Source: a virus. From it: DNA of 46,127 bases. The position numbers and the translations under genes are program-made. The notes beneath the pieces were generated by a model. That model was not told the origin of the DNA. It did no database searches and saw only the letters and a list, made by a program, of their open reading frames with translations. Shown here one piece after another: positions 2,027 to 46,127 of this stretch (within the stretch, counting starts at the first letter, position 1; each line of letters begins with the position of its first letter). The stretch lies in IMG/VR virus record IMGVR_UViG_3300048592_000656; one strand, written 5' to 3'.

Positions 2027-2292
2027 GGTACACCCTAGAGGTCATCGTCCGAGAGGGTCCCATCGTAGGATTCAGGGACCCTTTCGGACAACCCCTCTGG
2101 GCGTACCACAAGATGTACGAAGTCTCAGTGTCAAATCAGTTCGCCTCATCCCACAACTTCTTTGAAGCTGTGGAGGAGGTCAATGAGTCGATTGCCAAAA
2201 TGACTCGACTCATGAACGATCTTGGGATAGTCGTACACTACAAAGTCCGAAGCTGTCATCACGTGTTTTTCCAGGAGTTCATCGCAGAATGA
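2014..2292 (+). CDS. Hypothetical protein (92 aa, GTG start)
   Basis: ORF track. Overlaps the neighbours by 13 nt and 4 nt, typical operon packing. No motif recognised. Confidence 0.45.
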   Translation: MEPLRYTLEVIVREGPIVGFRDPFGQPLWAYHKMYEVSVSNQFASSHNFFEAVEEVNESIAKMTRLMNDLGIVVHYKVRSCHHVFFQEFIAE

Positions 2293-4241
2293 GTTTGGAA
2301 CCCGATGTCGAGTTCTTGGAGTCTATCTTCCAAGAGCAGCCTGGAAAATACATCGCACTCTCGAGGAAGAAACAAGGCAGGTGGAAAGATCTTTTCTTCC
2401 CGAACCTAGAGGAAGCTGTCAACTGGATCAAGCGTCAATCAAATGACACAGACGTCTACTTTTGTCCGACCAAGCTCACTAGACGACGCCGGAGAAAGGA
2501 GTACGTCGCCCCGTCTAAGTTCCTGTGGGCTGATCTAGACGAAGCCGATCCGCGTGACTTGAAGCAAGCGATCAAGCCTACACATGCCTGGGAATCCAGC
2601 CCAGGGCGATTTCAGGCTCTATGGGAACTCGATAAGGCATATTCCCCACAGGAAATCGAGGGTCGCAACAAGGGGATTGCCGAAACTGTAGGCGCAGACA
2701 TTAGTGGTTGGGACTTGACACAGGTCCTTCGCGTCCCCGGAACATACAACAACAAATACCCCTCCCAGCCTCACATCGCCAAGATGTGGATCGATCACTC
2801 TGCTATTCGACCCCTCGTGAACTACCCAGATGCGTCGATAGCACCAATTCCAGACGACGAACAGGACACTTCGCTGGTCGCTAATCGCGCGTTCGTATCG
2901 CGTCTTTTGCGACCCTGGCGACATGCGATTCCGAAGAAGGTAGTCAGGTTGCTGCTGTCTGACAAGGCTACCACAGGTAAGCGATCAGACATGCTTTGGT
3001 ATATCGCTCACGAGTTGATTAAAGCTCGTGTGCCCGAGGATACAGCATTCCAGGCGATCAGGAACTCGGTATGGAACAAGTATCGAGGACGCCGGGATGA
3101 AATCCAAAGGCTTCAACATGAAATTGAAGAGGCTAGGAAAAGAGAGCGGCCTCAAGACGAAGCGATGGATCGCGAAAGACCGCTCTTTTCCATTGTAGAC
3201 CATCTTCAATTGATGGCTTCAGTTCACAGCAGGCCAAACTGGCTCATCGAGCAGTTTTGGTCTTACAACAGCCACGGGATCATCGCAGGCGAACCGAAGA
3301 CGTTCAAGTCTACGCTATGCCTCGATATGGCTATCTCTGTGGCATCGGGGACACCGCTCTTTGGCACATACAAGGTCACTGAGCCTGGGCCTGTTCTAGT
3401 CATCCAGAACGAGAACTCGGATTGGATCATGCAGGACCGCTCGAGGAAAATCTGTGCCACAAGAGGACTCGTTGGGGAAATGCATAGGAGAATCGATGAC
3501 GAGATCATCGTCCATGCACCTCCCAAGCTTCCCATTTACTACGTGAACCAACAAGGCTTTTCCTTCACCGATCCGATGCATACCGAATTCATCGAGGCTT
3601 GGTGTCAGGCGATCAAACCTAGGATGATCGTGTTCGATCCCTTGTATCTCATGTTCGACGGTGAGCTCAATTCCTCGAAAGACTTGAATCCCGTCCTTAG
3701 CTACCTCTTGTATCTCAAACAGGAATACAAGACAGCTATTGTCCTCATTCATCACTGGAACAAAGGTGGTCTCAGTAGTCGAGGTGGCCAACGAATGCTT
3801 GGATCTACAACCCTTCATGGTTGGACCGAATCGGCTTGGTACCTCAGCATCCGAGGCGTTGAGATCGAGAAGAAGGGCGAAGAGGAAGAAGATGAGCCTA
3901 CTGGAGTTCGACCCGCACTAGCCAAGCTAGTCATGGAACGCGAATTCCGTGGTTCTGGTATCTTCCCGAAGGTAGAGATGACTGTGGCAATGGGCGAATA
4001 TGGCAATGATCTTTATGCCGTCAACTTCGATTCCTATAAGCCACAGGCGCAACCGAAAGCATCTCGAGACGACCTCGAGGGCGATATCCTGAATCAGCTC
4101 CAGCTGAATGGAAAAGCTTCTCTTAAGAAGCTATCCGAACTTGTAGGAACTAGCCGTCGACTTGTAAGAGAGGTTACAGTGTCGATGGAGAAGAAGGGGA
4201 TATTGAAGAAGGTGGGCCAGACATACTCGGTGAAGGGGTGA
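2289..4241 (+). CDS. Bifunctional AEP primase-polymerase / RecA-like (RepA/AAA_25-type) helicase with a C-terminal winged helix
   Basis: N-terminal AEP motifs: WADLDEAD (DxD), SSPGRFQALW (sGxG.h-like), DLTQVLRVPGTYNNKY. Central P-loop IIAGEPKTFKSTLCLDMA, Walker B-like MIVFDPLYLMFDG and LIHHWNK. C-terminal LKKLSELVGTSRRLVREVTVSMEKKG. Confidence 0.85.
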   Translation: MSLEPDVEFLESIFQEQPGKYIALSRKKQGRWKDLFFPNLEEAVNWIKRQSNDTDVYFCPTKLTRRRRRKEYVAPSKFLWADLDEADPRDLKQAIKPTHAWESSPGRFQALWELDKAYSPQEIEGRNKGIAETVGADISGWDLTQVLRVPGTYNNKYPSQPHIAKMWIDHSAIRPLVNYPDASIAPIPDDEQDTSLVANRAFVSRLLRPWRHAIPKKVVRLLLSDKATTGKRSDMLWYIAHELIKARVPEDTAFQAIRNSVWNKYRGRRDEIQRLQHEIEEARKRERPQDEAMDRERPLFSIVDHLQLMASVHSRPNWLIEQFWSYNSHGIIAGEPKTFKSTLCLDMAISVASGTPLFGTYKVTEPGPVLVIQNENSDWIMQDRSRKICATRGLVGEMHRRIDDEIIVHAPPKLPIYYVNQQGFSFTDPMHTEFIEAWCQAIKPRMIVFDPLYLMFDGELNSSKDLNPVLSYLLYLKQEYKTAIVLIHHWNKGGLSSRGGQRMLGSTTLHGWTESAWYLSIRGVEIEKKGEEEEDEPTGVRPALAKLVMEREFRGSGIFPKVEMTVAMGEYGNDLYAVNFDSYKPQAQPKASRDDLEGDILNQLQLNGKASLKKLSELVGTSRRLVREVTVSMEKKGILKKVGQTYSVKG

Positions 4242-4267
4242 GTTTTTTCGTACGGACCTGCGGTCCA

Positions 4268-4280
4268 CCTGTCCTATAAT
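4268..4280 (+). promoter_or_regulatory. Promoter-like element CCTGTCCTATAAT (-10 TATAAT 4275-4280)
   Basis: Intergenic, after the PrimPol-helicase stop. TATAAT is followed by 7 nt (gcaattg) and then an in-frame ATG at 4288. A T5-6CGT run lies 27-32 nt upstream, as at 4916 and 8138. Confidence 0.5.
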
Positions 4281-4506
4281 GCAATTGATGGGGGGCGAAA
4301 TGATGACACGGCTACGAAGGATGCGAGAAGAGCGAGGATGGACTCGAGCAGATTTAGCCCGTCGGGCTCGAGTCTCTCTTCGTACTCTATACACCGCTGA
4401 AAAGACGGGTAACATCTCACAAAGGAAGAAAGTCCGAATCGTCCGGGTCTTCGGACTTTCCTGGCAAGAAGTATCCGAGGTCTTTTCCATGGTGGAACAT
4501 GTTTAG
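4279..4506 (+). CDS. XRE-family helix-turn-helix regulator (75 aa; probable real start 4288 or 4300)
   Basis: MTRLRRMREERGWTRADLARRARVSLRTLYTAEKTGNIS is a classic XRE/Cro-CI HTH. The track start 4279 lies inside the TATAAT box; ATG 4288 fits a leaderless start. Confidence 0.75.
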   Translation: MQLMGGEMMTRLRRMREERGWTRADLARRARVSLRTLYTAEKTGNISQRKKVRIVRVFGLSWQEVSEVFSMVEHV

Positions 4507-4903
4507 AGTAGTCATACGATTCAAAGATGAATCTAGAATCATCTCCAGGTTCTACAAGAAGACCGATGCCGAGGTTTTCAAGAGGATCTGTGAAGAACAA
4601 ATCAAACCGCCGTTCCTGCACGAGATATACGTCATCAATGCCCTTCGATGCATACCTCGTCCAGCGGACTTTCCAATCAACCGAAGGGAAAAGACAAATC
4701 GTCTCTGGTGTACGATCTGTGGATCTTTCCAAGTGTTCAAGCCTTGGACCAAGGGGATTCGTCGATGTCCTCGATGTGGAATCTCAGACCAGGACTTCAA
4801 CATTAGGAAAGAGAACGGATTGTTCCTGGATGACATCGAGTCGTTCATCCTCACAAGCAACTTCAGGTTCAAGGAAAAGAGGAAAGGCGAGGAGAAGAAG
4901 TAA
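4499..4903 (+). CDS. Hypothetical zinc-ribbon protein (134 aa)
   Basis: ORF track. CTICGSF...CPRCG (CxxC-x18-CxxC) and a Lys/Glu-rich tail. Confidence 0.55.
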   Translation: MFRVVIRFKDESRIISRFYKKTDAEVFKRICEEQIKPPFLHEIYVINALRCIPRPADFPINRREKTNRLWCTICGSFQVFKPWTKGIRRCPRCGISDQDFNIRKENGLFLDDIESFILTSNFRFKEKRKGEEKK

Positions 4904-4938
4904 TATCTCGCGGAGTTTTTCGTTCGACAGGTCGGCAA

Positions 4939-4952
4939 GCATGTTGTATAAT
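4939..4952 (+). promoter_or_regulatory. Promoter-like -10 (TATAAT 4947-4952) upstream of the nucleotide cassette
   Basis: Intergenic gcatgttgTATAAT. A T5CGT run (4916-4923) sits at the same ~27-31 nt distance seen at 4243 and 8138. GGAGGTGG SD, then GTG 4979. Confidence 0.4.
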
Positions 4953-4978
4953 TCAACCCTAAGTATCGGAGGTGGATC

Positions 4979-5497
4979 GTGATTATCGTTGAGGGAATGG
5001 ACAACTCGGGCAAGACCACACTCGTGAACTATCTCGCGGAGACTTTCAACCTACCCGTCATACACTCGCCGGGTCCAAAGGCCGATCTCAATTACTTCAT
5101 GGTCGAGGCCATGATGACTGAGCTGAAGAACGAGCAAGTCATCTATGACCGATTCCCGGCATTCAGTGAAAGGGTTTACGGCCCGATCCTCAGAGGCCGA
5201 GATCACATCCAAGAGCGATACTTGGTACTGCTCGCCGCTCTCAAACCATACATCATCCACTGTGACCCAGGTCTGCACACAGTCCTGAGCACGATCAAAG
5301 ATCGTGAACAAATGGAGGGTGTCGAGGATCAGGCAGAACGTCTTTATCATCGGTATGAGAAGATCATGTTTCCCGAGGGAAACAAGCTTTTCTCTTTCCA
5401 TGTGACTCGATACAACTGGCATCATGAGATGTCTTACTCCTACATCAAACACAACGTAGCCCATTACCTCCAAACCCGAAAGGACAACCCGTGGTAA
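4979..5497 (+). CDS. dNMP kinase / thymidylate-kinase-like P-loop protein (172 aa, GTG start)
   Basis: N-terminal MIIVEGMDNSGKTTLVNYL matches the IxxEGxDGsGKTT P-loop signature of dTMP/dNMP kinases. First gene of the cassette. Confidence 0.65.
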   Translation: MIIVEGMDNSGKTTLVNYLAETFNLPVIHSPGPKADLNYFMVEAMMTELKNEQVIYDRFPAFSERVYGPILRGRDHIQERYLVLLAALKPYIIHCDPGLHTVLSTIKDREQMEGVEDQAERLYHRYEKIMFPEGNKLFSFHVTRYNWHHEMSYSYIKHNVAHYLQTRKDNPW

Positions 5498-6167: not shown

Positions 6168-6957
6168 GTGCTGGAAAGACCTCAACCGAGGCTTCCTGAA
6201 CCCGGAGCTCGACAACACGGGAATGCTCATTCCCAACCGAGACTTCTCGAGGGTCATTCCACACGTTCGTCTAGTGGCCGAAGAGGGGTTCGGCCTTCCG
6301 TCGAACCTCAACAAGCTGCCTCAGTTTTTCTCCAACTATGATCGGCGAATGACCCTTCTGGGAAATCGCTACATCGATCCCGAACTGTGGCAGGAAGGCG
6401 TCGAACGGCTCGTGGCTCGACGAAGTCGAATGGCACGGACCAATCCGCTCAGCTTCGTCATTCCGTTCCACAGGAGGGCAACCAGCGAGCGAAAGGTACC
6501 GGCTGGTGGTGGGTGCCTGCAGACCATCACGTTCATCTGGGTGAACGGCCGATGGGAACTTCACGTCGCACTTCGAGCTTCCGAGATCACCGCAAGACTG
6601 ATCGCCGACATGCTGTTCGTGAAGCGATCCGTCAATGCCATCGTCGAGGAAGTCAACTTCAAGAAGTGGGAGCCCAAGACTCGGATCGTGTGGGACATCG
6701 CTCTGGCTTCCCAGATGAAGTACTTGGTACCCCTCTACGTCCTGTTCGCCGAAGGAGAGGGTCAAGTCATCAACGAGTACACTTCGGGAAAGCCTGAAGG
6801 TATCTGGCAAAACATTATCTGGGAGCACTTCTGGGATACGTTCATCTATCCCGAACGGATCACGTGGGCACAGCGCCGAAAGTGGTCCGAGAAGTTTCTG
6901 GAAATGACCAGCGCACCCTGGGCCAAGCTGGCCAAGGCAGGAAGGGACTTCAAGTAA
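6136..6957 (+). CDS. Divergent thymidylate-synthase-fold (ThyA-like) paralogue 1 (TTG start; alternative ATG 6223)
   Basis: Core GGGCLQTITFIWVNGRWELHVALRASE reproduces the ThyA active-site spacing C-x5-F-x4-G-x8-R (E. coli [23 protein letters not shown]). The N-terminal half is unlike canonical ThyA. Confidence 0.45.
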   Translation: MLTIQSKTLYRCWKDLNRGFLNPELDNTGMLIPNRDFSRVIPHVRLVAEEGFGLPSNLNKLPQFFSNYDRRMTLLGNRYIDPELWQEGVERLVARRSRMARTNPLSFVIPFHRRATSERKVPAGGGCLQTITFIWVNGRWELHVALRASEITARLIADMLFVKRSVNAIVEEVNFKKWEPKTRIVWDIALASQMKYLVPLYVLFAEGEGQVINEYTSGKPEGIWQNIIWEHFWDTFIYPERITWAQRRKWSEKFLEMTSAPWAKLAKAGRDFK

Positions 6958-7655
6958 TGCGAATCTACAAGACTTTCATCGAAGCAGTGAGCGAGATGCG
7001 ACGGGACCTCAAGGAAATGGGTATCGAGGTACATACCCAGACATACCAAGACAAGCACATCGGTCTCGACCCGAAGATGGCAACCCTCGAGCTCCAGAAC
7101 TACATCTTCACAGTCACGTACCCCAGCCTGGCCGACCTCGAGCCGGTTCAGCCCTGGGCTGATCTGGAATTCGAGGAGAGGGTTCGCCCTCCGCACCCTC
7201 GTGGCGTGAACCCGGGTGAAGCCTACAAGGCTCGAATCGACGTCTGGGAGCAATTCCTCGAGCGCGATGGCTGCTTCGGGTACACTTACTCGGATCGAAT
7301 CAACAACAACGATGGAGCCAGCCAAGTCGATCAAATCGTCAGGGCAATTCAAATCGATCCGAGCTCGAGACAGCTCTTCATGTCGATCTGGGAGCCCGAG
7401 GACCTTTTCAACATCGGAGGAGCTCGTCGAGTCCCGTGCACGCTGGGCTATCACTTCCAGGTTCGACGAGGTCGGCTCAACATCACGTACCTGCAACGAT
7501 CCGCTGACATGGCCACCCACCTTCAGAACGATCTCTATCTGGCTGCCCGGATGCAAGCTCACGTCGCTGAACTGACTGGGTATGAGGTAGGTACCTATAC
7601 CCACTGGTTCGGCTCCCTCCATGTCTTCAAGAAGGACGTCGAGGGCGTATTCTAG
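6957..7655 (+). CDS. ThyA-family enzyme, deoxypyrimidine-monophosphate hydroxymethylase/methylase-like (232 aa)
   Basis: Internal ATG of ORF 6864..7655 (TAATG overlap at 6955-6959). DPSSRQLFMSIWEPEDL, RRVPCTLGYHFQVRRGRLNITYLQRSADMATHLQNDLYL and GSLHVF align with the ThyA motifs sRR.i.s.WnP.d, PC...F.V..G.L....QRS.D......N and gd.H.Y. Confidence 0.8.
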   Translation: MRIYKTFIEAVSEMRRDLKEMGIEVHTQTYQDKHIGLDPKMATLELQNYIFTVTYPSLADLEPVQPWADLEFEERVRPPHPRGVNPGEAYKARIDVWEQFLERDGCFGYTYSDRINNNDGASQVDQIVRAIQIDPSSRQLFMSIWEPEDLFNIGGARRVPCTLGYHFQVRRGRLNITYLQRSADMATHLQNDLYLAARMQAHVAELTGYEVGTYTHWFGSLHVFKKDVEGVF

Positions 7656-7656
7656 C

Positions 7657-8136
7657 ATGGACGCAGTAGATCCGACCTTGGCGAGTCTTTTGGCAGTCGA
7701 CACCCAATGGGATCGATTGCAAAGAGATGAAATGTTCCTCGCCATCGCCAAGGTCGTTTCTCTGCGAGGAACCTGCAGAAGGGCTCAAGTGGGTGCGGTG
7801 ATCGTCAAAGAGAACCGAATCATCTCCACAGGCTACAATGGGTCTGCCCCGGGTATGCCCCATTGCTATGAAGATGGTTGTCTCGAGGACGTGAATGGTG
7901 GGTGCACTCGGACGGTACATGCTGAAGCCAACTCGATTCTGTGGGCAGCGAGGTTCGGGGTATCGGTTGAAGACTCGGTGATGTATTCAACTCATTCCCC
8001 TTGTCTCTACTGTGCAAAGATGATCGTGGGGGCTGGCATCGTCAAGGTCACCTATCTGCACCCATACCGAGACCCCGCTGGGCTTGACTACATGCACAAC
8101 TGTGGGCTACGATACTGTCACCTTCAGGTTGGGTGA
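7657..8136 (+). CDS. dCMP deaminase (CMP/dCMP-type zinc deaminase)
   Basis: VHAEANSILWAA (HAE) and HSPCLYCAKMI (PCxxC) zinc-binding motifs. Start taken at ATG 7657, 1 nt after the upstream stop. Confidence 0.85.
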   Translation: MDAVDPTLASLLAVDTQWDRLQRDEMFLAIAKVVSLRGTCRRAQVGAVIVKENRIISTGYNGSAPGMPHCYEDGCLEDVNGGCTRTVHAEANSILWAARFGVSVEDSVMYSTHSPCLYCAKMIVGAGIVKVTYLHPYRDPAGLDYMHNCGLRYCHLQVG

Positions 8137-8162: not shown

Positions 8163-8175
8163 CCTGAGATATAAT
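8163..8175 (+). promoter_or_regulatory. Promoter-like 13-mer CCTGAGATATAAT (-10 TATAAT 8170-8175)
   Basis: Intergenic and identical to the 13-mer at 13436-13448. ATG 8187 is 11 nt after the -10. TTGGGT lies 18 nt upstream, and a T5CGT run is at 8138-8145. Confidence 0.6.
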
Positions 8176-8186
8176 TGGAGAATCGT

Positions 8187-10799
8187 ATGGCAACAGTAAA
8201 CGGCGATCCTCGATGCACGTTATGTCCCCTTCACAAGACTGCACAGATCGTGTGTCTTATGGGTCGGGGGCCTCTCCCTTGCAAGGTGATGATCGTAGGC
8301 GAGGCACCTGGTCGAAGGGAGGATGACGTTGGTAAGCCCTTTCAAGGTGCTGCTGGGCGCGTTTTGGACGAGGAGCTTTCGCTCAACGATGTATCGAGGA
8401 ATGACGTTTACATCACCAACACAGCCCGATGTAGACCACCCAGGAATCGAACTCCCAAGGCCGTAGAGATTCGTGAATGCGCCATCTGGATGGAGAAGGA
8501 GTTCAAGGAAGTTCAACCCAAGTTCGTTCTCTTGATGGGTCGAACTGCTTTGAAGACCGTGCCATTCTGGAAAAAAGCGAGCATCACGAAGATCCGAGGC
8601 CAGATCTACGAGCACGATGGCGTCTATTACATGGCTACGTTCCACCCTGCAGCCTGTCTGCCTGGAAGAGATACTGGCCGTGATAAGAAGCGCCCGGCAT
8701 TCCGAATCGACTTGAGTACCTTCTTCAAGTTGGTACGAGACGGGAAACCCCAGGAAACTGAGGGATTGAACGTCCAGATAGTTCGGAATGCCGACACTTT
8801 CAACGAGATGATCGACGACCTTCGAGAATGTCCCGATCCCTCGTATGACTTGGAAACCATGGGCCTTCGACCTCACGTGCCAAAGAAAGACATAGTCCTG
8901 GCTGGCTTTGGTACAGAAAAAGCTCAATGGGTCGTACCCATCAATTATCCCACAGCCGACGGAGGCAACAAGGCCCCGTTCAAGACTCGTCGGTCTAGGA
9001 AAATGGCTTGGGAATTGATCGGCGAAGCAATCCACGGTAAAAAGCTCATTACCCACAATGGCAAGTTCGACGCTTTGTGGGCATATACGAGATATGGCGT
9101 GATGCCGTATATTGGCTTCGACACGATGCTTGCTCACTATGTTCTAGATGAGAATTCACCGCACGCTCTCAAGTACCTTGGCCCTCTCTACTTTGGTATC
9201 CATGATTGGTCATTGGATATGGAAGGCGAATGGTGGCTCAGGTATACGCTCAAGGAATCGTCGAAGTATCTAGCTCAGGATCTTTTCTACACTCGAAAGT
9301 TGAAAGGCATCTTGTATGCTGAGCTAAGAAAAGACCCCGCGCTACTCCGATTCTACCGAACAATCCTTCTGCCTGCTTTCAGGCTCTATGCTCGAGTCGA
9401 AAAGGAAGGTATGTTTCTCAATATGGCCAACTACGAGGCGGCCAAATCTCACGCAATGAATCTTTGGGGTAGGGCATGCCTCGAGGTCAATAGAATCGAC
9501 CCCTCCATCAATTGGGGATCGCCGAAGCAAGTAGCCAAAAAGCTATATGAGGAGTTTGGCTTTCCCATCATCAAGACGACAAAGAAGGGAGCTCCGTCGT
9601 CAGATGAGGCCACACTTACCATCTTGGCTGAACCCCCCGACAAACCCATCCATATGTCTATCACTCGGCCAAATGAAAATCCAAAGATATTCGGCTCGAG
9701 AAAGACTATCGAATGGTGGTCCGGATACAAACACGAGATTCCACAAGCTCTTTTGAATCATCGGGCAGCGAAGAAAATGAAGGAGTTTGTGGATTCGTGG
9801 GAAGAACACCAGCAAGGTGGGCTAATTCACCCGTCTTACAAATTCCTCACCGTCACGGGTCGACTCTCTTGTGAAGGTCCTAACATTCAGCAAACGCCTC
9901 GAGAAAAAATCTTGAGGCAATGCTTTGATGCCCCCTTTCCGTTCATCTTCGTCGAGGCCGACCATTCACAGGTCGAACTCCGAGGCGTAGCGATGTTCGC
10001 TCCCGAGCCTACGATGAAAGCCATCTTCATCGCAGGCGAAGATATTCACAGGATGACTGCTCGAGACATCATTGGGATTGCTAACCCTACAGCCGAAGAC
10101 CGAAAGAAAGCAAAGGCAGTCAACTTTGGTCTCATCTACAGGATGGGCTGGAAAAAGCTACGAATCTACGCTCGTACCAAGTACGGAGTTGAGCTTTCTC
10201 CCGGGGAAGCGAAGAAGATCGTCAAGAATTACTTCCTGAAGTACAATCGACTCCGGTATTACTACGAGAAGCAAGAACGAGTAGCTCGGATGAATGGCTA
10301 TGTCCGTCATCCGTTGGGTCGCGTTCGCCACCTTCCCAATATCTTTTCTGAAGACGAACAAGAGCAGAACGAGGCAATTCGACTTGCCATCAATTCCCCG
10401 GTTCAGGGGTTCGCTTCAGATTACAATCTAGCGGGCATGGTTGACGTCGACCTTGAATTCAATCCCACTTGGGATGGTCCGCTACGAATCGTAGGAACGG
10501 TTCACGACTCGGGGCTGATGTGGGTCCATGCTCTTCATCTCCGTCGAATCCTCCCGAGGGTGAAGGAGATCATGGAGCATCCGCCCCGAGTCAAGAACAA
10601 AATCGGATTTACTCCTACGGTGCCTTGGAAGGTCGATTTCAAGATCGGCCCTTGGGGCGCTGGCAAGGAAATCGATCCGATGGCATGGGAAAATTGGGAA
10701 GTCTTCGTCAAAGACATGAAGGAGTCTGGTCAATGGGAACGGTACAAGCAGGCGAGGGAAGCGAAGAAGATCGACTCGTCGTTTCCCTCAGTCGGATAA
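8187..10799 (+). CDS. polA: Family-4 uracil-DNA-glycosylase domain fused to a family A DNA polymerase with 3'-5' exonuclease
   Basis: UDG4: CTLCPL, GEAPGRREDDVGKPFQGAAGRVLDE, ARCRPPRNRTP, FHPAA. Exo: YDLETMGL, HNGKFD, YLAQDLFY. Pol: ADHSQVELRG (motif A), KAKAVNFGLIYRMG (motif B), GTVHDSG (motif C). ATG 8187 is preferred over the track TTG at 8175. Confidence 0.9.
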   Translation: MATVNGDPRCTLCPLHKTAQIVCLMGRGPLPCKVMIVGEAPGRREDDVGKPFQGAAGRVLDEELSLNDVSRNDVYITNTARCRPPRNRTPKAVEIRECAIWMEKEFKEVQPKFVLLMGRTALKTVPFWKKASITKIRGQIYEHDGVYYMATFHPAACLPGRDTGRDKKRPAFRIDLSTFFKLVRDGKPQETEGLNVQIVRNADTFNEMIDDLRECPDPSYDLETMGLRPHVPKKDIVLAGFGTEKAQWVVPINYPTADGGNKAPFKTRRSRKMAWELIGEAIHGKKLITHNGKFDALWAYTRYGVMPYIGFDTMLAHYVLDENSPHALKYLGPLYFGIHDWSLDMEGEWWLRYTLKESSKYLAQDLFYTRKLKGILYAELRKDPALLRFYRTILLPAFRLYARVEKEGMFLNMANYEAAKSHAMNLWGRACLEVNRIDPSINWGSPKQVAKKLYEEFGFPIIKTTKKGAPSSDEATLTILAEPPDKPIHMSITRPNENPKIFGSRKTIEWWSGYKHEIPQALLNHRAAKKMKEFVDSWEEHQQGGLIHPSYKFLTVTGRLSCEGPNIQQTPREKILRQCFDAPFPFIFVEADHSQVELRGVAMFAPEPTMKAIFIAGEDIHRMTARDIIGIANPTAEDRKKAKAVNFGLIYRMGWKKLRIYARTKYGVELSPGEAKKIVKNYFLKYNRLRYYYEKQERVARMNGYVRHPLGRVRHLPNIFSEDEQEQNEAIRLAINSPVQGFASDYNLAGMVDVDLEFNPTWDGPLRIVGTVHDSGLMWVHALHLRRILPRVKEIMEHPPRVKNKIGFTPTVPWKVDFKIGPWGAGKEIDPMAWENWEVFVKDMKESGQWERYKQAREAKKIDSSFPSVG

Positions 10800-37661: not shown

Positions 37662-37901
37662 CTACTGTGCCGGAGTGGTCTGCTCGACCACGTCTTCCAC
37701 AGTGACTTCCGTGGGGATCTCGGTGAAGGACATCTCGTACATCCCTCCCTCGCGGATCCCTTCGCAGACGTCGGTCTTCACGAGGACTTCGTAGACCCCG
37801 TGGACGTTGCCGTCATTGATCTTCGTGCTTGTGCCGAAGATCAGGCGATGAAGGCCATTGCCCATGTCGTTCTTGTGGTTGCAGCGAGCCTTGATCTTCA
37901 A
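37662..37901 (-). CDS. Hypothetical protein (79 aa)
   Basis: ORF track. 4-nt overlap with terS. No motif. Confidence 0.45.
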   Translation of the reverse strand: MKIKARCNHKNDMGNGLHRLIFGTSTKINDGNVHGVYEVLVKTDVCEGIREGGMYEMSFTEIPTEVTVEDVVEQTTPAQ

Positions 37902-38458
37902 TGGATCTTCTCCTTGTCGTCCTCGGTTGCGAAGCTGGCCGCGACCGCTTCGGGCGAGAAGTCACTCTCCTCGTCCTCCTCCAGAAGGGCCTCTTCGATG
38001 GGCATCGCAGCCTTCTTCGCCAACTGAGCGAAGGTCACCGCGATGGGATCGCCATCTCGTCCGAAGACCTCGAGCTTGCGGCTGTACTTCGGATGATGGG
38101 CTTCCAGCATCCTGATGGCCAGGATGTCGGAGAACTTCTTCGTCGTTCCGACCTTCCGTCCCATCTGGAAGACGGGCTCGTCCACGCCATCGAAGGCGCG
38201 GCGGGCGGCCTTGGCTTCCCAGGCTCCAACCGAGACCTGAAGAGCGTGATCCCACGCTGCGGACAGGCGGGGATGCTTGTTCTTGAGACGGTAGAGAACG
38301 CGGTCGGACTTGAAGCCTGCCTTCGCTGCGGCTCGATTCACGTTCGGGACTTCGCGGAGCTCCTGGAGGAACTTCTCGATCATCCGCGGTGTCACTCGGG
38401 GCGGAAGAGCCATGCTCTTCTTCTTCCCTTCCGCGATTGTGTTCCTCGCTCGTGCCAT
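37898..38458 (-). CDS. terS: Terminase small subunit candidate
   Basis: Basic N-terminus with an HTH-like VNRAAAKAGFKSDRVLYRLKNKHP. 186 aa with an acidic C-terminus. Lies upstream of terL. Confidence 0.6.
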   Translation of the reverse strand: MARARNTIAEGKKKSMALPPRVTPRMIEKFLQELREVPNVNRAAAKAGFKSDRVLYRLKNKHPRLSAAWDHALQVSVGAWEAKAARRAFDGVDEPVFQMGRKVGTTKKFSDILAIRMLEAHHPKYSRKLEVFGRDGDPIAVTFAQLAKKAAMPIEEALLEEDEESDFSPEAVAASFATEDDKEKIH

Positions 38459-38884: not shown

Positions 38885-39191
38885 CCTGATCGGCACTCGG
38901 CCTGTAAAGGTTGCCCTCGCATCGCTGGCAAGTTAGTCGCAATTCGAGCGCCTAGGAGTTGAGCCCCTGACTGAGTTTCAATTTCTCCCGGTTCTGGCAC
39001 CGGCGTTTCAAAGCCCCAGTTAGACTGGTTGTCTCCGGAAGAGACGGTCTTGTTTGACGTTTGTTGGGCGGGACAGGGCCGCGTTTCGCGCGCGTCGATT
39101 TCGGGGGGTGCGTCGCGACGCGCACACAAACGAAACGCGCGCCGAGTGTCGCCACCCGACGCGCGCTCGTTTGCGCTAGTGCGCTTGCGCG

Positions 39192-39599
39192 CTAGTCGCT
39201 CGCGCGCTCGACGTTCGCCTTGCGCGGCGCAGCGATCGCGAACACGCGAACGCGGCGCGCGTCGTCGCGAACGACGACGCTCGCATCGACGACATGATGT
39301 CGGCGCAGTCGTCGCAGTACTTGGCGCACTTCGCGATACGTCGCGACATCGGCGCATCGCGTCGCGATCGCGCGCGTCGTCGCGACGTCGCCGCGACGCG
39401 CGAGCGCGCGAATCGCATCGACGACGCGCGTTTCGGCGCTCGCTGCGACGAAGCGCTCGTCGGTGTACACCTTCGTGCGCTTCGTGCGCTTCGTGCGCTT
39501 CGTCGTTGCGTCGTCGGCGATGATGGCGTCGTTCGCCGCGTTCGCTTCGTCGTTGTTCATCGTAATCATACTATTTACTCGTTTCGTCGTTTCGTTCAT
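39192..39599 (-). CDS. Winged-helix DNA-binding protein encoded in a CpG-rich island, paralogue of 43539..43928 (start uncertain: 39599, 39569 or 39560)
   Basis: Best reading frame of several open frames. ...(TKR)x3...AIRALARRGDVATTRAIATRCADVATYREVRQVLRRLRRHHVV...RRVRVFAI aligns with QVRQALRRLRRRQRI...QTRVYFL of the + strand gene. No SD before any candidate start. Confidence 0.45.
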   Translation of the reverse strand: MNETTKRVNSMITMNNDEANAANDAIIADDATTKRTKRTKRTKVYTDERFVAASAETRVVDAIRALARRGDVATTRAIATRCADVATYREVRQVLRRLRRHHVVDASVVVRDDARRVRVFAIAAPRKANVERASD

Positions 39600-39867
39600 C
39601 GCGTTAGTGCGATCGAACGAGTGCAGTATCGAACGCGCGCGAACGAAACGCAAGCGCATAACGCGCGAATTGTTTTATACTCGCGCGTTTTATAAATTCC
39701 AACGTCGCGAACGCGCGAACCGCAATCCATCGTCGTCCGTTCATTTCACGTCCGCTCACGTCATCTCACGTCATCTCATCTCACCTCATCCGCGCGCGCT
39801 CGAAACCTGACCTGACCGGACTAGATCGGGCGCTGGGGCCTGACTTGACCAGACCTCGAGTGAGGTG

Positions 39868-40034
39868 GTTCTCAGGCATGAGTCAGGCGCTCCATCGCGA
39901 TCATGCGAGCCCGTTCTCGGTCTCTCTAGATCTGGAGAGATAAAGTTCTCAGGCGTGGGATGGTTCTCAGTAGCAGGTTCTCGGCGTGGTTCTCAGGCGT
40001 GGTATAGTTCTCAGGCCTGCCAGGCTTTGAGAAC
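39868..40034 (+). repeat. Iteron cluster 1: seven direct GTTCTC(A/G)G copies plus one inverted copy
   Basis: GTTCTC starts at 39868, 39913, 39945, 39963, 39977, 39989 and 40007 (extended consensus GGTTCTCAGGCGTGG). Inverted GAGAAC at 40029-40034. ORF-free. Confidence 0.85.
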
Positions 40035-40045
40035 ATGAACCTGGC

Positions 40046-40064
40046 GGCCTGACTAGACCTGAAG
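40046..40064 (+). repeat. 19-bp direct repeat GGCCTGACTAGACCTGAAG, copy 1
   Basis: Identical to 40170-40188. The pair brackets the 17-bp tandem array. Confidence 0.9.
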
Positions 40065-40078
40065 TAAAGACCGTACCT

Positions 40079-40143
40079 GAAAGTAGCCCGAACTAGAAAG
40101 TAGCCCGAACTTGAAAGTAGCCCGAACTTGAAAGTAGCCCGAG
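40079..40143 (+). repeat. Tandem repeat, 17 bp x ~4 (GAAAGTAGCCCGAACTT)
   Basis: Units at 40079-40095, 40096-40112 and 40113-40129, plus a partial unit at 40130-40143. Copies 2 and 3 are identical and copy 1 differs at its last base. Confidence 0.95.
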
Positions 40144-40169
40144 GCTGAGGTATCAAGCCTAGGTACCGT

Positions 40170-40188
40170 GGCCTGACTAGACCTGAAG
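40170..40188 (+). repeat. 19-bp direct repeat GGCCTGACTAGACCTGAAG, copy 2
   Basis: Identical to 40046-40064. Confidence 0.9.
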
Positions 40189-40204
40189 AGAAGAACGAAT
40201 CGAC

Positions 40205-40240
40205 AATCAATCCCCCGCGTGGATCGCGGGGAGATTGATT
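40205..40240 (-). terminator. Hairpin terminator candidate after the 40240..40629 gene
   Basis: aatcaatcccccgcg / tggat / cgcggggagattgatt: a ~15-bp stem with one bulge that abuts the stop codon. On the minus strand it is followed by the moderately U-rich gtcgattcgttcttctcttc. Confidence 0.5.
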
Positions 40241-40629
40241 TACGGCGCCGGAATGATGCGTTCGGCCGGAACCCCGAAGTCGTTGATCAGTTCCTGAGTG
40301 GATTCGTCGTCGTCGGAGATGATGAGGGCATCAGAGTAGTTGATGACGTAGGAGGTCAGTTTCTTGACGAGATCGAAATCGATTATCTCCTGAGCCTGAG
40401 ATATTTCGTATTCGTGGATGAATACGCCAGATTCCCCCCGGAAGACGGATCTCCAGATCGCGTAGAGGAAGTCCTGACAGTTGGGATAATAGTCGAACCA
40501 GGTGTCGTCGCCTGATACGTCGACGGATCCGGATTGTCTCTGAGCGTCTTGATACGTCTTGACGATTTCGTTCGAGAGGGCCTGATTCTCCTCGGATGAA
40601 GTGAAATCGAATCGTTCGTGATCGAGCAT
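40240..40629 (-). CDS. Acidic hypothetical protein (129 aa)
   Basis: ATG 40629 with an AGGAGA SD; the track ORF extends to 40713. MLDHERFDFTSSEENQ...DDDESTQELINDFG. Asp/Glu-rich, no motif. Confidence 0.6.
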   Translation of the reverse strand: MLDHERFDFTSSEENQALSNEIVKTYQDAQRQSGSVDVSGDDTWFDYYPNCQDFLYAIWRSVFRGESGVFIHEYEISQAQEIIDFDLVKKLTSYVINYSDALIISDDDESTQELINDFGVPAERIIPAP

Positions 40630-40677
40630 GATATGTCTCCTGATTTCGTTTTCGTCGCGTTCGTCGCGACGACGATA

Positions 40678-40690
40678 ACGATATCTCAAG
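40678..40690 (-). promoter_or_regulatory. Promoter-like motif CTTGAGATATCGT (minus strand)
   Basis: 49 nt upstream of ATG 40629, followed by the CG-rich leader tatcgtcgtcgcgacgaacgcgacg. Same class as 41432-41444 and 41934-41946. Confidence 0.5.
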
Positions 40691-40753
40691 TGGAAACGCC
40701 TGTCGAATTCCACCTGCCCGGGCCTGAACCATCATGCCTGCCCAGTACCGAGG

Positions 40754-40835
40754 CCTGATACCTACTGGACTCTAAGGCCTGATACCTACTGGACTCTAAG
40801 GTGATACCAAACCTGATACCTACTGGACTCTAAGG
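40754..40835 (+). repeat. 24-bp repeat CCTGATACCTACTGGACTCTAAGG x3
   Basis: Identical copies at 40754-40777, 40778-40801 and 40812-40835. A 10-nt spacer tgataccaaa separates copies 2 and 3, and a partial 4th copy (cctgat) starts at 40836. Confidence 0.95.
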
Positions 40836-40911
40836 CCTGATCTCGCAAACGCAACCTGACCTGACCAGACTAGCTCATATGCCACAGGATATCCCCCTGA
40901 GGGGACCCTGA

Positions 40912-41133
40912 TTAGAACCGGTGGCGGAGAGATTCGTATACTGCCTGAATTCGCTGGCTGATTCCCTGGCAGAAATCGTCGTCGTCGATCTCATCCAGGG
41001 TCTCATCGATGAGTTCGTTGAGATTTGCGTGGGCAGTTCTTAGACCGTTCTCGGTCCAATCATCCCCGACGTGGAGGAGTTGCTCGAGAGCGGAAGTGCA
41101 GTGTTCGACGAATCGCTTGTTGGCTGAGTCCAT
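40912..41133 (-). CDS. Small acidic helical protein (73 aa)
   Basis: ATG 41133 with a GGAGGG SD, 4 nt after the upstream stop. MDSANKRFVEH...ETLDEIDDDDF. Confidence 0.55.
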   Translation of the reverse strand: MDSANKRFVEHCTSALEQLLHVGDDWTENGLRTAHANLNELIDETLDEIDDDDFCQGISQRIQAVYESLRHRF

Positions 41134-41137
41134 TCTG

Positions 41138-41389
41138 TTACCCTCCAATGATGAAGTTGGATTGTGTGGTGAGGATGTGTACGGTAGCATCCTCAGATCC
41201 CGGATCGATCAGAGCGTTGACGGTGCCCTGATCGTTGAATTCGATCCTGAGGAGATACATTTCAGAGTCGGGGGACCTGAATATCTCGTATGAGGAGATT
41301 CCCCATTCGGGATTGAGCTTGACGGGATGAGATTCAGTCCAGTACGCGATACGTTCGATCGCTTGCTGGATCGTATCGTTTCGTTCCAT
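41138..41389 (-). CDS. Hypothetical protein (83 aa), first gene of a leftward two-gene operon
   Basis: ORF track. GGGGG SD-like sequence upstream, and the promoter-like motif 43 nt upstream. Confidence 0.6.
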   Translation of the reverse strand: MERNDTIQQAIERIAYWTESHPVKLNPEWGISSYEIFRSPDSEMYLLRIEFNDQGTVNALIDPGSEDATVHILTTQSNFIIGG

Positions 41390-41431
41390 GATGAGACCCC
41401 CTTCGCGCGTCGTTCGTTCGACGCGATACGA

Positions 41432-41444
41432 ACGATATCTCAGG
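41432..41444 (-). promoter_or_regulatory. Promoter-like motif CCTGAGATATCGT (minus strand)
   Basis: The minus strand reads caCCTGAGATATCGTtcgtatcgcgtcgaacgaacgacgcg. Its downstream end is 43 nt from ATG 41389. Confidence 0.55.
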
Positions 41445-41465
41445 TGTAATCAAAAGTAAATATCC

Positions 41466-41484
41466 TGAGAAAATTATTTTCTCA
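41466..41484. promoter_or_regulatory. Perfect 19-bp palindrome TGAGAAAAT-T-ATTTTCTCA (operator candidate)
   Basis: 9-bp arms around one central base. Lies in the divergent region between the leftward (41432) and rightward (41603) promoter-like motifs. The half-site resembles the TTCTCA iteron core. Confidence 0.6.
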
Positions 41485-41602
41485 AGCAGGCCCCATCTGT
41501 GCGGGCCTGACTAGTCCTGACCCTAAGAGGCTCTCTCTCATGGGCGGCCTGACCTGACCTGCGGAGAATTGTGGGAGAACAAGTACCCACATCCTGCTCA
41601 GG

Positions 41603-41615
41603 CCTGTGATATAAT
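41603..41615 (+). promoter_or_regulatory. Promoter-like motif CCTGTGATATAAT (-10 TATAAT 41610-41615)
   Basis: Rightward, in the divergent intergenic region. ATG 41624 begins 8 nt after the -10. Confidence 0.55.
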
Positions 41616-41623
41616 ACCTGTCG

Positions 41624-41908
41624 ATGGCCAGATCTCTCGACCTTACGATCCGCACCTGTCCTGAGATGCCCCTTTCTCAGGTGGGCTTGCCGGATAACGC
41701 GCGTAAGATTCAGGTGCCGGCTCCTCAGGCCCCGCACCCCCAGGCGGAATCATTCTCAGCCGTTCTCACGCGCGCAAGCTCGTTCTCGGTTCACAGTCCA
41801 TTCTCGCGCTCCCTCGTTCTCGGAAAACCTGACCTGCCTTCAGGTAAAAGACTATTCTCGGTAGAGCCCCTATGCGAAACCCGTGCCAACAATCTTAAAC
41901 TGGACTGA
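41624..41908 (+). CDS. Doubtful ORF (94 aa) overlying iteron cluster 2
   Basis: ORF track. A leaderless-type ATG sits 8 nt after a -10. However the product is low-complexity Pro/Ser-rich, and its repeated FS dipeptides come from the TTCTC repeats. Confidence 0.25.
   Translation: MARSLDLTIRTCPEMPLSQVGLPDNARKIQVPAPQAPHPQAESFSAVLTRASSFSVHSPFSRSLVLGKPDLPSGKRLFSVEPLCETRANNLKLD
41752..41861 (+). repeat. Iteron cluster 2: six direct (A/G)TTCTC(A/G)(C/G) copies
   Basis: Copies start at 41752, 41762, 41782, 41800, 41816 and 41854, in the same orientation as cluster 1. Confidence 0.8.
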
Positions 41909-41933
41909 AAAATTATTATCACCGGATAAATAA

Positions 41934-41946
41934 CCTGTGATATCGT
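41934..41946 (+). promoter_or_regulatory. Promoter-like motif CCTGTGATATCGT heading a 520-nt ORF-free stretch
   Basis: Same motif class as the two leftward copies. The next convincing CDS starts at 42466. Confidence 0.45.
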
Positions 41947-42465
41947 TACGACGATCGAATAACGTGATCGTAGGACTCAGGAAGCTGATACGACGTTCGC
42001 GTTCGGGAGAATCGCCCTCATACAGGCTTCTCTCCCCTCGTTACGATCTTTGACACCACTGACGTACCCACGCTTCGTCGCGCCTCTCAGGATACGACCG
42101 GGGCTAGCGAACCCCGTTACGATCTAAGAGTCGACGATGGCCCACGTCAGTGACAGCCGGTACGCGATAACGCGATACCCCGACGTTTCCGCCCACGCTC
42201 CCAAGCTCCCGCACCTCACTACGCAGCGTTCACGTAGATGAGATAAACGTCGCGCAGTCATCGCCTCTTACGCTACCCCATACACGCTGGAAGTTTCCTT
42301 TCTTCTTCCCCATCGACGACGAGATGAGAAGACAGTTCTCGCTCGTAGTCGAAACTGAGGGGCACGTTCTTCACAGTCTGGTAACCCGGACACCGAGTCC
42401 GTAGCCCCTTAGTTAGCGGGACTTGACCTACCCGCTCTGAAGATGACAGGTCAATCGAAAGGGGA

Positions 42466-42801
42466 ATGAAGATGGAAGACAATGCCAAGGAAACCACCGA
42501 CAAGGTGATGAAGGATTCCGCTCTCTGCGAGAACGAGATCCTTCTCATCAACGAGATGCGCGGAAGACACGCACTCACGATGCGACATCAGGGAAAGGGG
42601 AAACCCACCTCCCTCCTCGTCACGATCCGAGTCACGGTCTTCCCCCACGCAAATCAGGACCCGGTAGCGACATTCAGCTCGTTCTTTCAGAACAATCTGG
42701 TTCTCGCTGCCATCGGTGATCCCCGGATCGCAACGAACTCGAGGCTCCGTCCCGAGATCGAGATCGTGAAGGTGGGGACGGCAAGGAAGACTGACCGATG
42801 A
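42466..42801 (+). CDS. Hypothetical protein (111 aa)
   Basis: ORF track. AAGGGGA SD. No motif. Confidence 0.55.
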   Translation: MKMEDNAKETTDKVMKDSALCENEILLINEMRGRHALTMRHQGKGKPTSLLVTIRVTVFPHANQDPVATFSSFFQNNLVLAAIGDPRIATNSRLRPEIEIVKVGTARKTDR

Positions 42802-43538: not shown

Positions 43539-43928
43539 ATGCGAACCCGCGCACGCGCGGCCGTTGCAGCAACCAAGGCAGCGACCAAACAGTCGCTTCC
43601 CGCTGCAAATTCCGCGCCTCAACCGGTTCCCATCATCGTCGAGGAGGTTCCGGACAACCCGGCCACCGCCCCCCGACGGAGAATGAGAAGGCAAGAGCTG
43701 GAAGACGCGATCGTCACCACGATCCCGATCATCAGGCGACAACGCCTACATCCCACACAAGGGTCCATCGCACGGGCCCTCGATCAGGATGTCTTCCAGG
43801 TGAGACAGGCTCTACGTCGTCTTCGACGGCGACAGAGAATCTGCTTCACCCTGAAGGAGATCGTTCCGAATCGTCAAACCCGGGTCTACTTCCTGCCCTC
43901 GAAGAAGAAGACCCCAACCAATGAATGA
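43539..43928 (+). CDS. Winged-helix DNA-binding protein (129 aa), paralogue of the island gene 39192..39599
   Basis: GGAAAGGAGA SD. RRQELEDAIVTTIPIIRRQRLHPTQGSIARALDQDVFQVRQALRRLRRRQRICFTLKEIVPNRQTRVYFL. Confidence 0.6.
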   Translation: MRTRARAAVAATKAATKQSLPAANSAPQPVPIIVEEVPDNPATAPRRRMRRQELEDAIVTTIPIIRRQRLHPTQGSIARALDQDVFQVRQALRRLRRRQRICFTLKEIVPNRQTRVYFLPSKKKTPTNE

Positions 43929-44545: not shown

Positions 44546-44813
44546 TGCACAGCACAGCGACCTGGATCGCATCCGCCGCCCAGTCACAAATCGCGCGACG
44601 CGAATTGCGACACAGGCACCGGATGCAAATTCGATCTCCCCCACGATCATGCACAGCGTTGCACAGCGGCGATTCCCCACCCCGACCTCACAAAACAGGA
44701 AGGGGTGGGTGAACCGCCATTCCGCACACACAACCCGTGTAGGTATCGATAAAGACGGGGGAGAGTTTCGGCCTCGACAACCACACAGGGTTGTCATAGA
44801 ATGGGAGAGTTCA

Positions 44814-44826
44814 GAGAACGGTTCTC
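44814..44826. promoter_or_regulatory. Palindromic iteron pair GAGAAC-G-GTTCTC (operator candidate)
   Basis: 48 nt upstream of ATG 44874. Same hexamer as the two iteron clusters, in inverted arrangement. Confidence 0.55.
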
Positions 44827-44873
44827 CCGTACTCTCTCACTCATCAGAAGAAAAGAAGAGAAGGAAACTTCAC

Positions 44874-45332
<459 letters not shown>

Positions 45333-46000: not shown

Positions 46001-46127
46001 GACTTCCAGTATGTCAATCATCAAGCTCCACCAGGGTCAGGTCCAGGAGATCCCCTTCAAGCAGGGGGACAATCTCCTGGAGCTCACCAGAAACACGTTC
46101 CACAGCAAGACCTTCACCGTGAGTCAC
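46001..46127. repeat. Terminal direct repeat, copy 2 (exact duplicate of 1-127)
   Basis: Same comparison as copy 1. It contains the 5' end of the CDS annotated at 11..400, so the unique genome is 46000 bp. Confidence 0.97.

Follow-up and report, generated by a model that had tools for sequence, protein, structure and literature searches.

A conserved array of RTTCTCRG octamers, probably a multi-site protein-binding element, in the genome of an uncultured lytic siphovirus

The IMG/VR virus record IMGVR_UViG_3300048592_000656, a stretch of 46,127 nucleotides (nt) that we call the window, carries a cluster of seven short direct repeats in a gene-free gap. Judging from its sequence conservation, this array (cluster 1) is probably a multi-site protein-binding DNA array: the octamer core RTTCTCRG is kept in related lineages while geometry and copy number vary, which is the signature of independent protein-binding sites. 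Among the more specific roles, we put forward by analogy, at a rough probability of 0.35, that the octamers are iterons of the type found at ori and crr of phage P4 and would be bound by the phage's own primase-helicase, which ends in a winged helix-turn-helix (wHTH) domain. By sequence analysis the window is a complete circular siphovirus genome (46.0 kb, 54.7% GC), circular assembly following from its identical 127-nt ends (1-127 = 46001-46127), and its phage is a lytic, uncultured siphovirus of a new lineage; a DNA search of 39000-42500 against 50,697 phage records gave 0 matches.

The octamer clusters and their conservation

The sites on which the argument turns are the following.

39868-40014, + strand: cluster 1, seven direct RTTCTCRG cores at 39868, 39913, 39945, 39963, 39977, 39989 and 40007
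40027-40034, - strand: inverted copy TTGAGAAC, which forms an inverted repeat with 7-bp arms with the copy at 40007
41752-41861, + strand: cluster 2, in the orientation of cluster 1, with four conserved copies (41752, 41782, 41816, 41854) and two degenerate, non-conserved ones (41762, 41800)

All seven copies in cluster 1 read GTTCTCRG on the + strand, and both their start positions and their spacings (45, 32, 18, 14, 12 and 18 nt) are exactly those given in an initial annotation made from the letters of the window. In the whole window GTTCTCRG has 14 matches against 5.4 ± 2.4 expected, a number reached by none of 100 dinucleotide-preserving shuffles, and the Poisson probability of seven same-strand copies within 150 nt is about 8e-19 per position. 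The annotation's description of the array as free of open reading frames (ORFs) is borne out in the useful sense: only mechanical ORFs cross it, of 57 amino acids (aa) on the + strand and 94 aa on the - strand, and gene callers run on three related contigs placed 0 genes in the homologous gap.

The comparison set consists of a near variant, L367, and two diverged lineages, L371 and L372. L367 (JGI 3300048838) is 97.3% identical to the window over 4.5 kb, and its 12 substitutions within 39868-40034 all lie in spacers, 0/12 falling in the 56 core positions (p about 0.007). L371 joins contig L124 by an overlap of 47 nt. Its coding DNA agrees with the window at about 70-73% of positions, and the two proteins that flank the gap, the wHTH protein and the 129-aa product of the early gene, are each 65% identical; the homologous gap holds six GTTCTCRG copies in the same orientation as in the window, spaced 44, 36, 12, 24 and 12 nt, and four further copies stand at positions aligned with cluster 2. 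The more distant L372, with a wHTH protein 59% identical, has four copies of GTTCTCAG and one degenerate copy directly 3' of the stop codon of the homologous early gene, and more copies in its divergent region (at 2758, 3080 and 3124). Copy number thus runs 7, 6 and 4-5, and spacing 12-45, 12-44 and 7-17 nt, in the window, L371 and L372, respectively, and the spacers between octamers are not alignable across the three. In the pooled set of 28 sites, positions 2-6 and 8 never vary, and positions 1 and 7 are each either A or G; a weak T-C preference follows the octamer, and the flank in relatives tends to GTTCTCRG-TC.

Judged from these aligned sites, the conserved element is RTTCTCRG only. The 15-nt extended consensus of the initial annotation, GGTTCTCAGGCGTGG, fits two to three copies in the window and was not seen in the relatives. 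The inverted GAGAAC that the annotation had placed at 40029-40034 is present, with no counterpart in L371 or L372; like the 17-nt tandem array and the GGCGTGG flank, it is specific to the lineage of the window in that comparison. Scans of viral and metagenome contigs with GTTCTCAGGCGTGG and with a three-copy gapped pattern returned, among the matches listed, unrelated loci and none resembling the window, and protein-seeded scans of IMG/VR and GTDB genomes (with the 129-aa protein and with an alignment of the wHTH protein) gave 0 matches. Nothing like the octamer array is seen in the known relatives PMBT14 and Lebethron, which share the replication module; PMBT14 shows just a tandem duplication of roughly 127 bp.

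Cluster 2, first noted as a second direct cluster at 41752-41861, is real as well. Its octamers are GTTCTCGG at 41782 and 41816, ATTCTCAG at 41752 and ATTCTCGG at 41854; it lies 1.8 kb from cluster 1, and the two, similarly oriented, bracket the leftward early operon. An ORF (41624-41908) runs over cluster 2, its protein is not conserved, and the motif falls in two of its reading frames, so that a peptide repeat was rejected as the origin of the motif. The palindromes that the annotation had built from the same hexamer fared less well. At 44814-44826 the sequence is as described (GAGAACGGTTCTC, GAGAAC-G-GTTCTC), but it lies inside ORF 44649-45332, which encodes an acidic repeat protein and contains this perfect inverted hexamer pair; at 41466-41484 there is an inverted pair, but not of the exact hexamer, as it reads GAGAAA...TTTCTC with one mismatch.

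Several familiar repeat classes were tried for cluster 1 and rejected. Irregular spacing does not suit a tandem repeat or CRISPR, and TRF reports only 2.2 copies of a 13-mer. The alphaproteobacterial LexA box is GTTC-N7-GTTC, and no pair of copies stands 11 nt apart in the window, L371 or L372. Arm-type sites of an attP need an adjacent tyrosine integrase, and were rejected because none was found among the scanned proteins: Pfam and PHROG scans, covering most larger ORFs and the ORFs around the array rather than every ORF, showed no integrase family.

Setting of the array and the CCTGA-rich domain

Transcription diverges near 41.4-42.4 kb, with the AT-skew minimum at 41820. Rightward genes run from 42466 through the coordinate origin to about 15.2 kb, and leftward genes from 41389 down to 15284. 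The first three leftward genes (41389-41138, 41133-40912 and 40629-40240) are small acidic orphans with good Shine-Dalgarno sequences; then comes the gene-free gap 39561-40239 (678 nt), which holds cluster 1 and ranks among the two largest non-coding regions in the genome. To the left of the gap follow, in order, an isolated GC-rich gene (39560-39192), a 124-aa gene, the terminase genes for TerS and TerL, and the structural genes. On one side of cluster 1 the leftward early operon thus comes to its end, and on the other stands an orphan winged-helix gene, with the packaging and structural genes after it. Nowhere in the genome but in 39.7-41.9 kb does non-coding DNA hold short-repeat arrays. 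The structural and packaging set includes a tape-measure protein of 1754 aa, a major head protein, portal, TerL and TerS; the replication module includes a RepB_primase-AAA_25-wHTH protein, a UDG-fused family A polymerase, a PD-(D/E)XK nuclease, Sak4 and a helicase. Along 6864-8136 and 8175-10799 lie genes for a thymidylate-synthase-like protein, a dCMP deaminase and the UDG domain fused to family A polymerase, a set that PMBT14-like phages have too; it may point to modified DNA or to a non-canonical metabolism of pyrimidines.

On the + strand the gap reads, in order: promoter-like AT boxes, a CACGTCAYC tract, a pentamer array, the seven octamers, the inverted copy, a 17-nt tandem repeat and a hairpin. 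The features of the gap, of the control region to its right and of the packaging genes to its left are:

37898-38458, leftward block: TerS (phrog_4044, E = 3e-23)
39741-39790, + strand: CACGTCAYC repeats with a 10-nt period, between the promoter-like region of the wHTH gene and the pentamer array
39803-39856, + strand: phased pentamer array, AAACCTGACCTGACC ... GGCCTGACTTGACCAGACC / GGCCTGACTTGACC, directly left of cluster 1 and kept in all three lineages
40046-40188, + strand: lineage-specific insert with a 17-nt tandem repeat, TGAAAGTAGCCCGAACT, of 3.8 copies (40078-40142)
40212-40232, - strand: GC-rich hairpin, 8 nt past the stop of the 129-aa early gene, which separates the early-left operon from the array
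41426-41485, no strand: 60-mer with the highest AT content in the genome (28% GC), on the left of cluster 2; may serve in unwinding or as a promoter
41601-41616, + strand: extended -10 promoter-like GGCCTGTGATATAAT, about 140 nt upstream of cluster 2 and kept in L371
41889-41948, no strand: 60-mer with the second highest AT content (30% GC), on the right of cluster 2, with the palindrome TTATC-ACCG-GATAA and a promoter-like CCTGTGATATCGT

L371 has a periodic CGTCAC tract related to the CACGTCAYC repeats. The insert is bracketed by 19-nt direct repeats (GGCCTGACTAGACCTGAAG, at 40046 and 40170) and, being present in the window and L367 and absent from L371, looks like a lineage-specific insertion or expansion. 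At the place equivalent to the hairpin, L371 has one and L372 has none. Within cluster 1 the promoter scan found no promoter-like site, and the TGAC arrays, which resemble -35 elements, were rejected as promoters since neither by eye nor in the scan does a -10 lie at the right distance. The nearest candidate, TTGGAA-17-TATAAA on the - strand (about 39705-39677), was seen by eye and is not listed by the scan.

Some further observations concern the neighbouring control elements. The unit of the wHTH gene (39130-39720) is compositionally foreign (65-76% GC, where the whole genome has 54.7%, with many CGTCG and TCGCG), and has its own promoter-like site and a terminator-like hairpin with a 16-bp stem (39168-39133), a moron-like layout. 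A promoter-like motif, CCTGNGATATCGT or CCTGTnnTATAAT, recurs at 40676-40691(-), 41431-41445(-), 41601-41616(+), 41933-41948(+) and 4262-4275(+), each time just ahead of early genes, on one strand or the other; kept in L371, it probably represents the consensus of early promoters in this group of phages. Some 850 nt (41620-42465) are gene-free before the first rightward gene and about 69% identical to L371 (blastn), with fully identical blocks; they hold ACACGCTGGAAGTTTCCTTTCTTCTTCCCC near 42282-42311, three GTTACGATC repeats and conserved hairpins before the Shine-Dalgarno sequence at 42466, and are a candidate long structured leader or non-coding RNA, with no Rfam match. Between two early leftward genes stand three copies of a 24-nt unit, AGGCCTGATACCTACTGGACTCTA (40751-40841), where L371 has different, CCTGAC-rich repeats.

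The array is not the dominant signal of the region. The strongest strand-specific word there is CCTGA rather than GTTCTC: in 39.8-41.9 kb (39806-41828) the + strand carries 35 copies against 2.5 expected (about 14-fold, p about 1e-27) and the other strand 11. The same strand bias is seen in L371 (37 vs 14), where it does not reach beyond the two octamer clusters, their surroundings and the DNA between them, and in L372 (29 vs 11). It extends into coding sequence, and within the leftward early ORFs the sense strand carries 23 copies of TCAGG (seven ORFs, three lineages), with 5.1 expected and a maximum of 15 in 2000 synonymous redraws; these copies are partly at non-homologous positions. The non-coding pentamer arrays are phased, as in CCTGA-CTAGA-CCTGA. 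At window position 41526, L367 has a 35-nt insertion with an extra GGCCTGACCTGTCCTGATTC and two more pentamer copies, so that pentamer copy number varies between near-identical strains.

Action on one DNA strand or on one leftward transcript would explain why the pentamers and both octamer clusters share an orientation. We found no known system that fits the CCTGA enrichment. As a speculative proposal, which we think improbable, the octamer arrays might be the ends or loading sites of a polar cis domain of about 2 kb, with a CCTGA lattice of a kind not yet described in phages; such a lattice could be a track or a protective, Chi-like field for a DNA translocase or nuclease, or could tag early transcripts for an RNA-binding protein or RNase. 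Whatever its role, the array offers a handle on a strand-specific CCTGA enrichment of the early-left region that is kept in three lineages and visible in synonymous codon choice.

The transcript option can be stated for the octamers themselves: a leftward early transcript would carry both clusters, as CYGAGAAC, together with about 35 UCAGG as sites for an RNA-binding protein or endoribonuclease, a logic comparable to that of T4 RegB, which cuts GGAG in early mRNAs. Octamer clusters and pentamers are indeed co-oriented over about 2 kb, roughly bounded by the leftward transcription unit, and the pentamer is enriched within early ORFs beyond what the amino acids need (23 vs 5.1). We nevertheless hold an RNA-level element to be unlikely: Rfam gave no match (whole window at gathering thresholds; 39500-42600 at E <= 1), no structure is conserved and the spacers are unalignable, in two lineages a hairpin stands between cluster 1 and the genes, and no RNA-binding protein was identified while several wHTH DNA binders are available.

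Its position might also fit a packaging site, either an accessory array for the small terminase or a terminus-proximal repeat field, as the array heads the leftward block that holds TerS and TerL and sits in one of the two largest non-coding regions. Comparators would be the R sites of lambda cosB, the seven hexamers of P1 pac and the CCTAAAG arrays of T7. This is the least probable of the readings considered. The array lies 1.4 kb and two genes upstream of terS, and cluster 2 lies 3.3 kb from terS, within the early control region where transcription diverges. The partners of a TerL relative (50% identity) are a small terminase of the Sf6 type and a portal fused to Mu F, which suggests headful packaging like that of P22 and Sf6, phages in which pac lies inside terS. 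The contig break between L124 and L371, finally, is an assembly break and not a physical end.

Candidate binding proteins and the origin reading

The proteins that the initial annotation had named as candidate binders, small wHTH proteins and the C-terminal wHTH of a primase-helicase, are encoded in the genome:

39192-39560, - strand: orphan winged-helix protein of 122 aa, adjoining the array in every lineage; candidate binder
43539-43928, + strand: second small wHTH-like protein, 129 aa, in the rightward early operon, with the recognition-helix motif VRQxLRRLRR as in the 122-aa protein
2289-4241, + strand: RepB_primase - AAA_25 helicase - C-terminal wHTH (HTH_24), 650 aa (Pfam); candidate replication initiator

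With its asymmetric 8-bp core, RTTCTCRG is about the size of the site of one winged-helix domain. The AlphaFold2 model of the 122-aa protein (pLDDT about 87 at residues 34-110) has three helices, a beta-hairpin wing and a disordered basic N-terminus, and in a PDB fold search it gives only generic winged-helix matches (PadR, MarR, TFE-alpha, Orc1). Only three relatives were found in 1.8e9 representative proteins, all from this phage group, and the recognition helix is conserved across the lineages. The 129-aa protein aligns to it with 25% identity over 101 aa at E = 1e-4 in a five-sequence comparison made with no composition correction, and BLASTP with composition-based statistics returns no alignment; the two may be distant paralogues, on weak evidence. 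The C-terminal wHTH of the primase-helicase is dissimilar to both.

The initial annotation had offered either replication iterons or a cooperative regulator array. What the two options share holds: the comparative data point strongly to a selected, sequence-specific binding array paired with cluster 2. Between the two options we lean tentatively, by likeness to P4, to iterons bound by the primase-helicase-wHTH protein. Any phage that encodes a protein of this type is expected to have a cognate origin in its genome, and a repeated short conserved sequence in non-coding DNA, the generic mark of an iteron origin, was found here. In the proposed mechanism the primase-helicase would presumably be a hexamer, whose six flexible DNA-binding domains could dock on four to seven octamers. 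Cluster 2 would be the origin proper, because the two most AT-rich segments of the genome and early promoters flank it, and cluster 1 a distant auxiliary set, comparable to P4 crr or to control iterons of the incA type, which might pair with the origin by DNA looping.

Several points weigh against this proposal. No AT-rich unwinding element adjoins cluster 1, which has 55-62% GC by itself and 49-62% with its flanks (genome, 54.7%); any iteron origin is therefore more likely at cluster 2. The minimum of cumulative GC skew is at 44.7 kb and not at 40-42 kb, weak evidence since transcription also shapes the skew. Between the array and the initiator gene lie 8.3 kb, in contrast to the origins of staphylococcal pathogenicity islands (SaPIs), and no repeat array was found beside that gene (4242-4750, and around 1900-2400). 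All copies in cluster 1 are direct, where P4 and the SaPIs mix orientations. The two small wHTH proteins, which share a recognition helix and one of which always stands beside the array, are equally good binders. The analogous array of another phage, MW202455.1, runs into the promoter of a wHTH gene and looks regulatory.

An alternative is an operator or roadblock array, bound by monomers of the 122-aa wHTH protein, its 129-aa paralogue or both, that would time the switch from early to late genes. It could act by blocking elongation at both ends of the leftward early unit, or the paralogues could compete for the two clusters. The wHTH gene stands beside the array in three lineages, with a conserved recognition helix that matches an unchanged motif, and VRQxLRRLRR is present in the 129-aa protein too, so that two proteins and two clusters of one motif resemble a switch of two proteins and two operators. 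Both clusters have one orientation, as fits action on a single leftward transcription unit; cluster 1 is exactly at the early/late boundary, after the hairpin of the early operon; and in MW202455.1 the packaging operon begins with a wHTH gene whose extended -10 promoter is overlapped, at its -35, by the octamer-like array. We rate this reading only a little below the origin reading. Against it, cluster 1 holds no promoter-like site, and the nearest one, the TTGGAA-17-TATAAA already mentioned, is about 165-330 nt off, with no clear conservation in L371. An operator would not usually consist of six or seven direct sites at irregular spacings. That gene and array adjoin does not tell the readings apart, since synteny extends over the whole region, and the paralogy comes from one weak alignment.

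Comparison with known systems

The array belongs to a familiar class, iteron or operator array, in a new phage lineage. The uncultured phage MW202455.1 (L373), whose primase-helicase is the closest among the matches listed (40% identity), has six direct and two inverted copies of TCCGCAG in about 300 nt, in a gap upstream of an ORF with a wHTH domain, and a pair of copies at a second locus (28.1 kb). The array reaches the extended -10 promoter of this unannotated multi-wHTH ORF, which heads Q-like, terS and terL genes. It differs from ours in having another motif and a wHTH protein without detectable homology, and in abutting a promoter, which cluster 1 does not. Within 4185-5020 of that record, the unannotated ORF (4431-5020, 196 aa), with TGATATAAT and the repeats ahead of it, gives MarR-like wHTH matches, and the annotated minus-strand coding sequence over the repeats (4142-4468) is probably spurious.

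Among regulators, gp71 of mycobacteriophage L5 blocks elongation at asymmetric, co-oriented "stoperators", and CI and Cro of lambda compete at OL and OR. Asymmetric co-oriented sites between transcription units recall the former; two clusters about 2 kb apart and two related proteins recall the latter. L5, however, has single 13-bp sites spread genome-wide, whereas here four to seven octamers are packed in 50-150 nt with no promoter inside, and the operators of lambda are 17-bp pseudo-palindromes that overlap promoters. If the regulator reading is true, an orphan winged-helix family and its operator have been defined.

The Rep helicases of SaPIs read penta- or hexanucleotide iterons, 6-12 copies per origin, via a C-terminal winged helix, and these iterons lie immediately downstream of rep, in opposed sets around a central AT-rich region (PMC9371898). 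What this phage would share with them are very short iterons read by the winged helix of a self-loading hexameric helicase. The position beside rep, the opposed sets and the AT-rich centre have no parallel in cluster 1.

Satellite phage P4 comes closest, in form only. In its record the 8-bp repeats, TGTTCACC, are annotated as "ori type 1", at spacings of 9-43 bp; ori has six of them and crr, 4.7 kb away and just past the terminator of the alpha operon, has ten, and there is a second family of 10-bp tandem repeats. The motif differs (TGTTCACC vs RTTCTCRG), orientation is mixed in P4 and uniformly direct here, and P4 ori is AT-rich (32-39% GC), which cluster 1 is not. P4 is not among the best 30 tblastn rows listed for the initiator in the phage collection; the RepB_primase/AAA_25 call concerns the protein of this phage, and P4 alpha is likened to it by layout and not by a comparison of domain families. 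Yet both systems have 8-bp repeats at irregular spacings (9-43 bp in P4, 12-45 here) in two clusters separated by kilobases, of which one follows closely on an operon terminator, an extra family of tandem repeats, and as initiator a primase-helicase fusion with a C-terminal winged helix. P4 has, moreover, a small wHTH partner protein, Cnr, and small wHTH proteins are present in this phage too. For an uncultured siphovirus lineage the result gives a testable cis-element (RTTCTCRG, in two clusters) and three candidate binders and, if the likeness to P4 proves true, bipartite octamer origins would extend to lytic phages with an unrelated primase-helicase of the RepB type.

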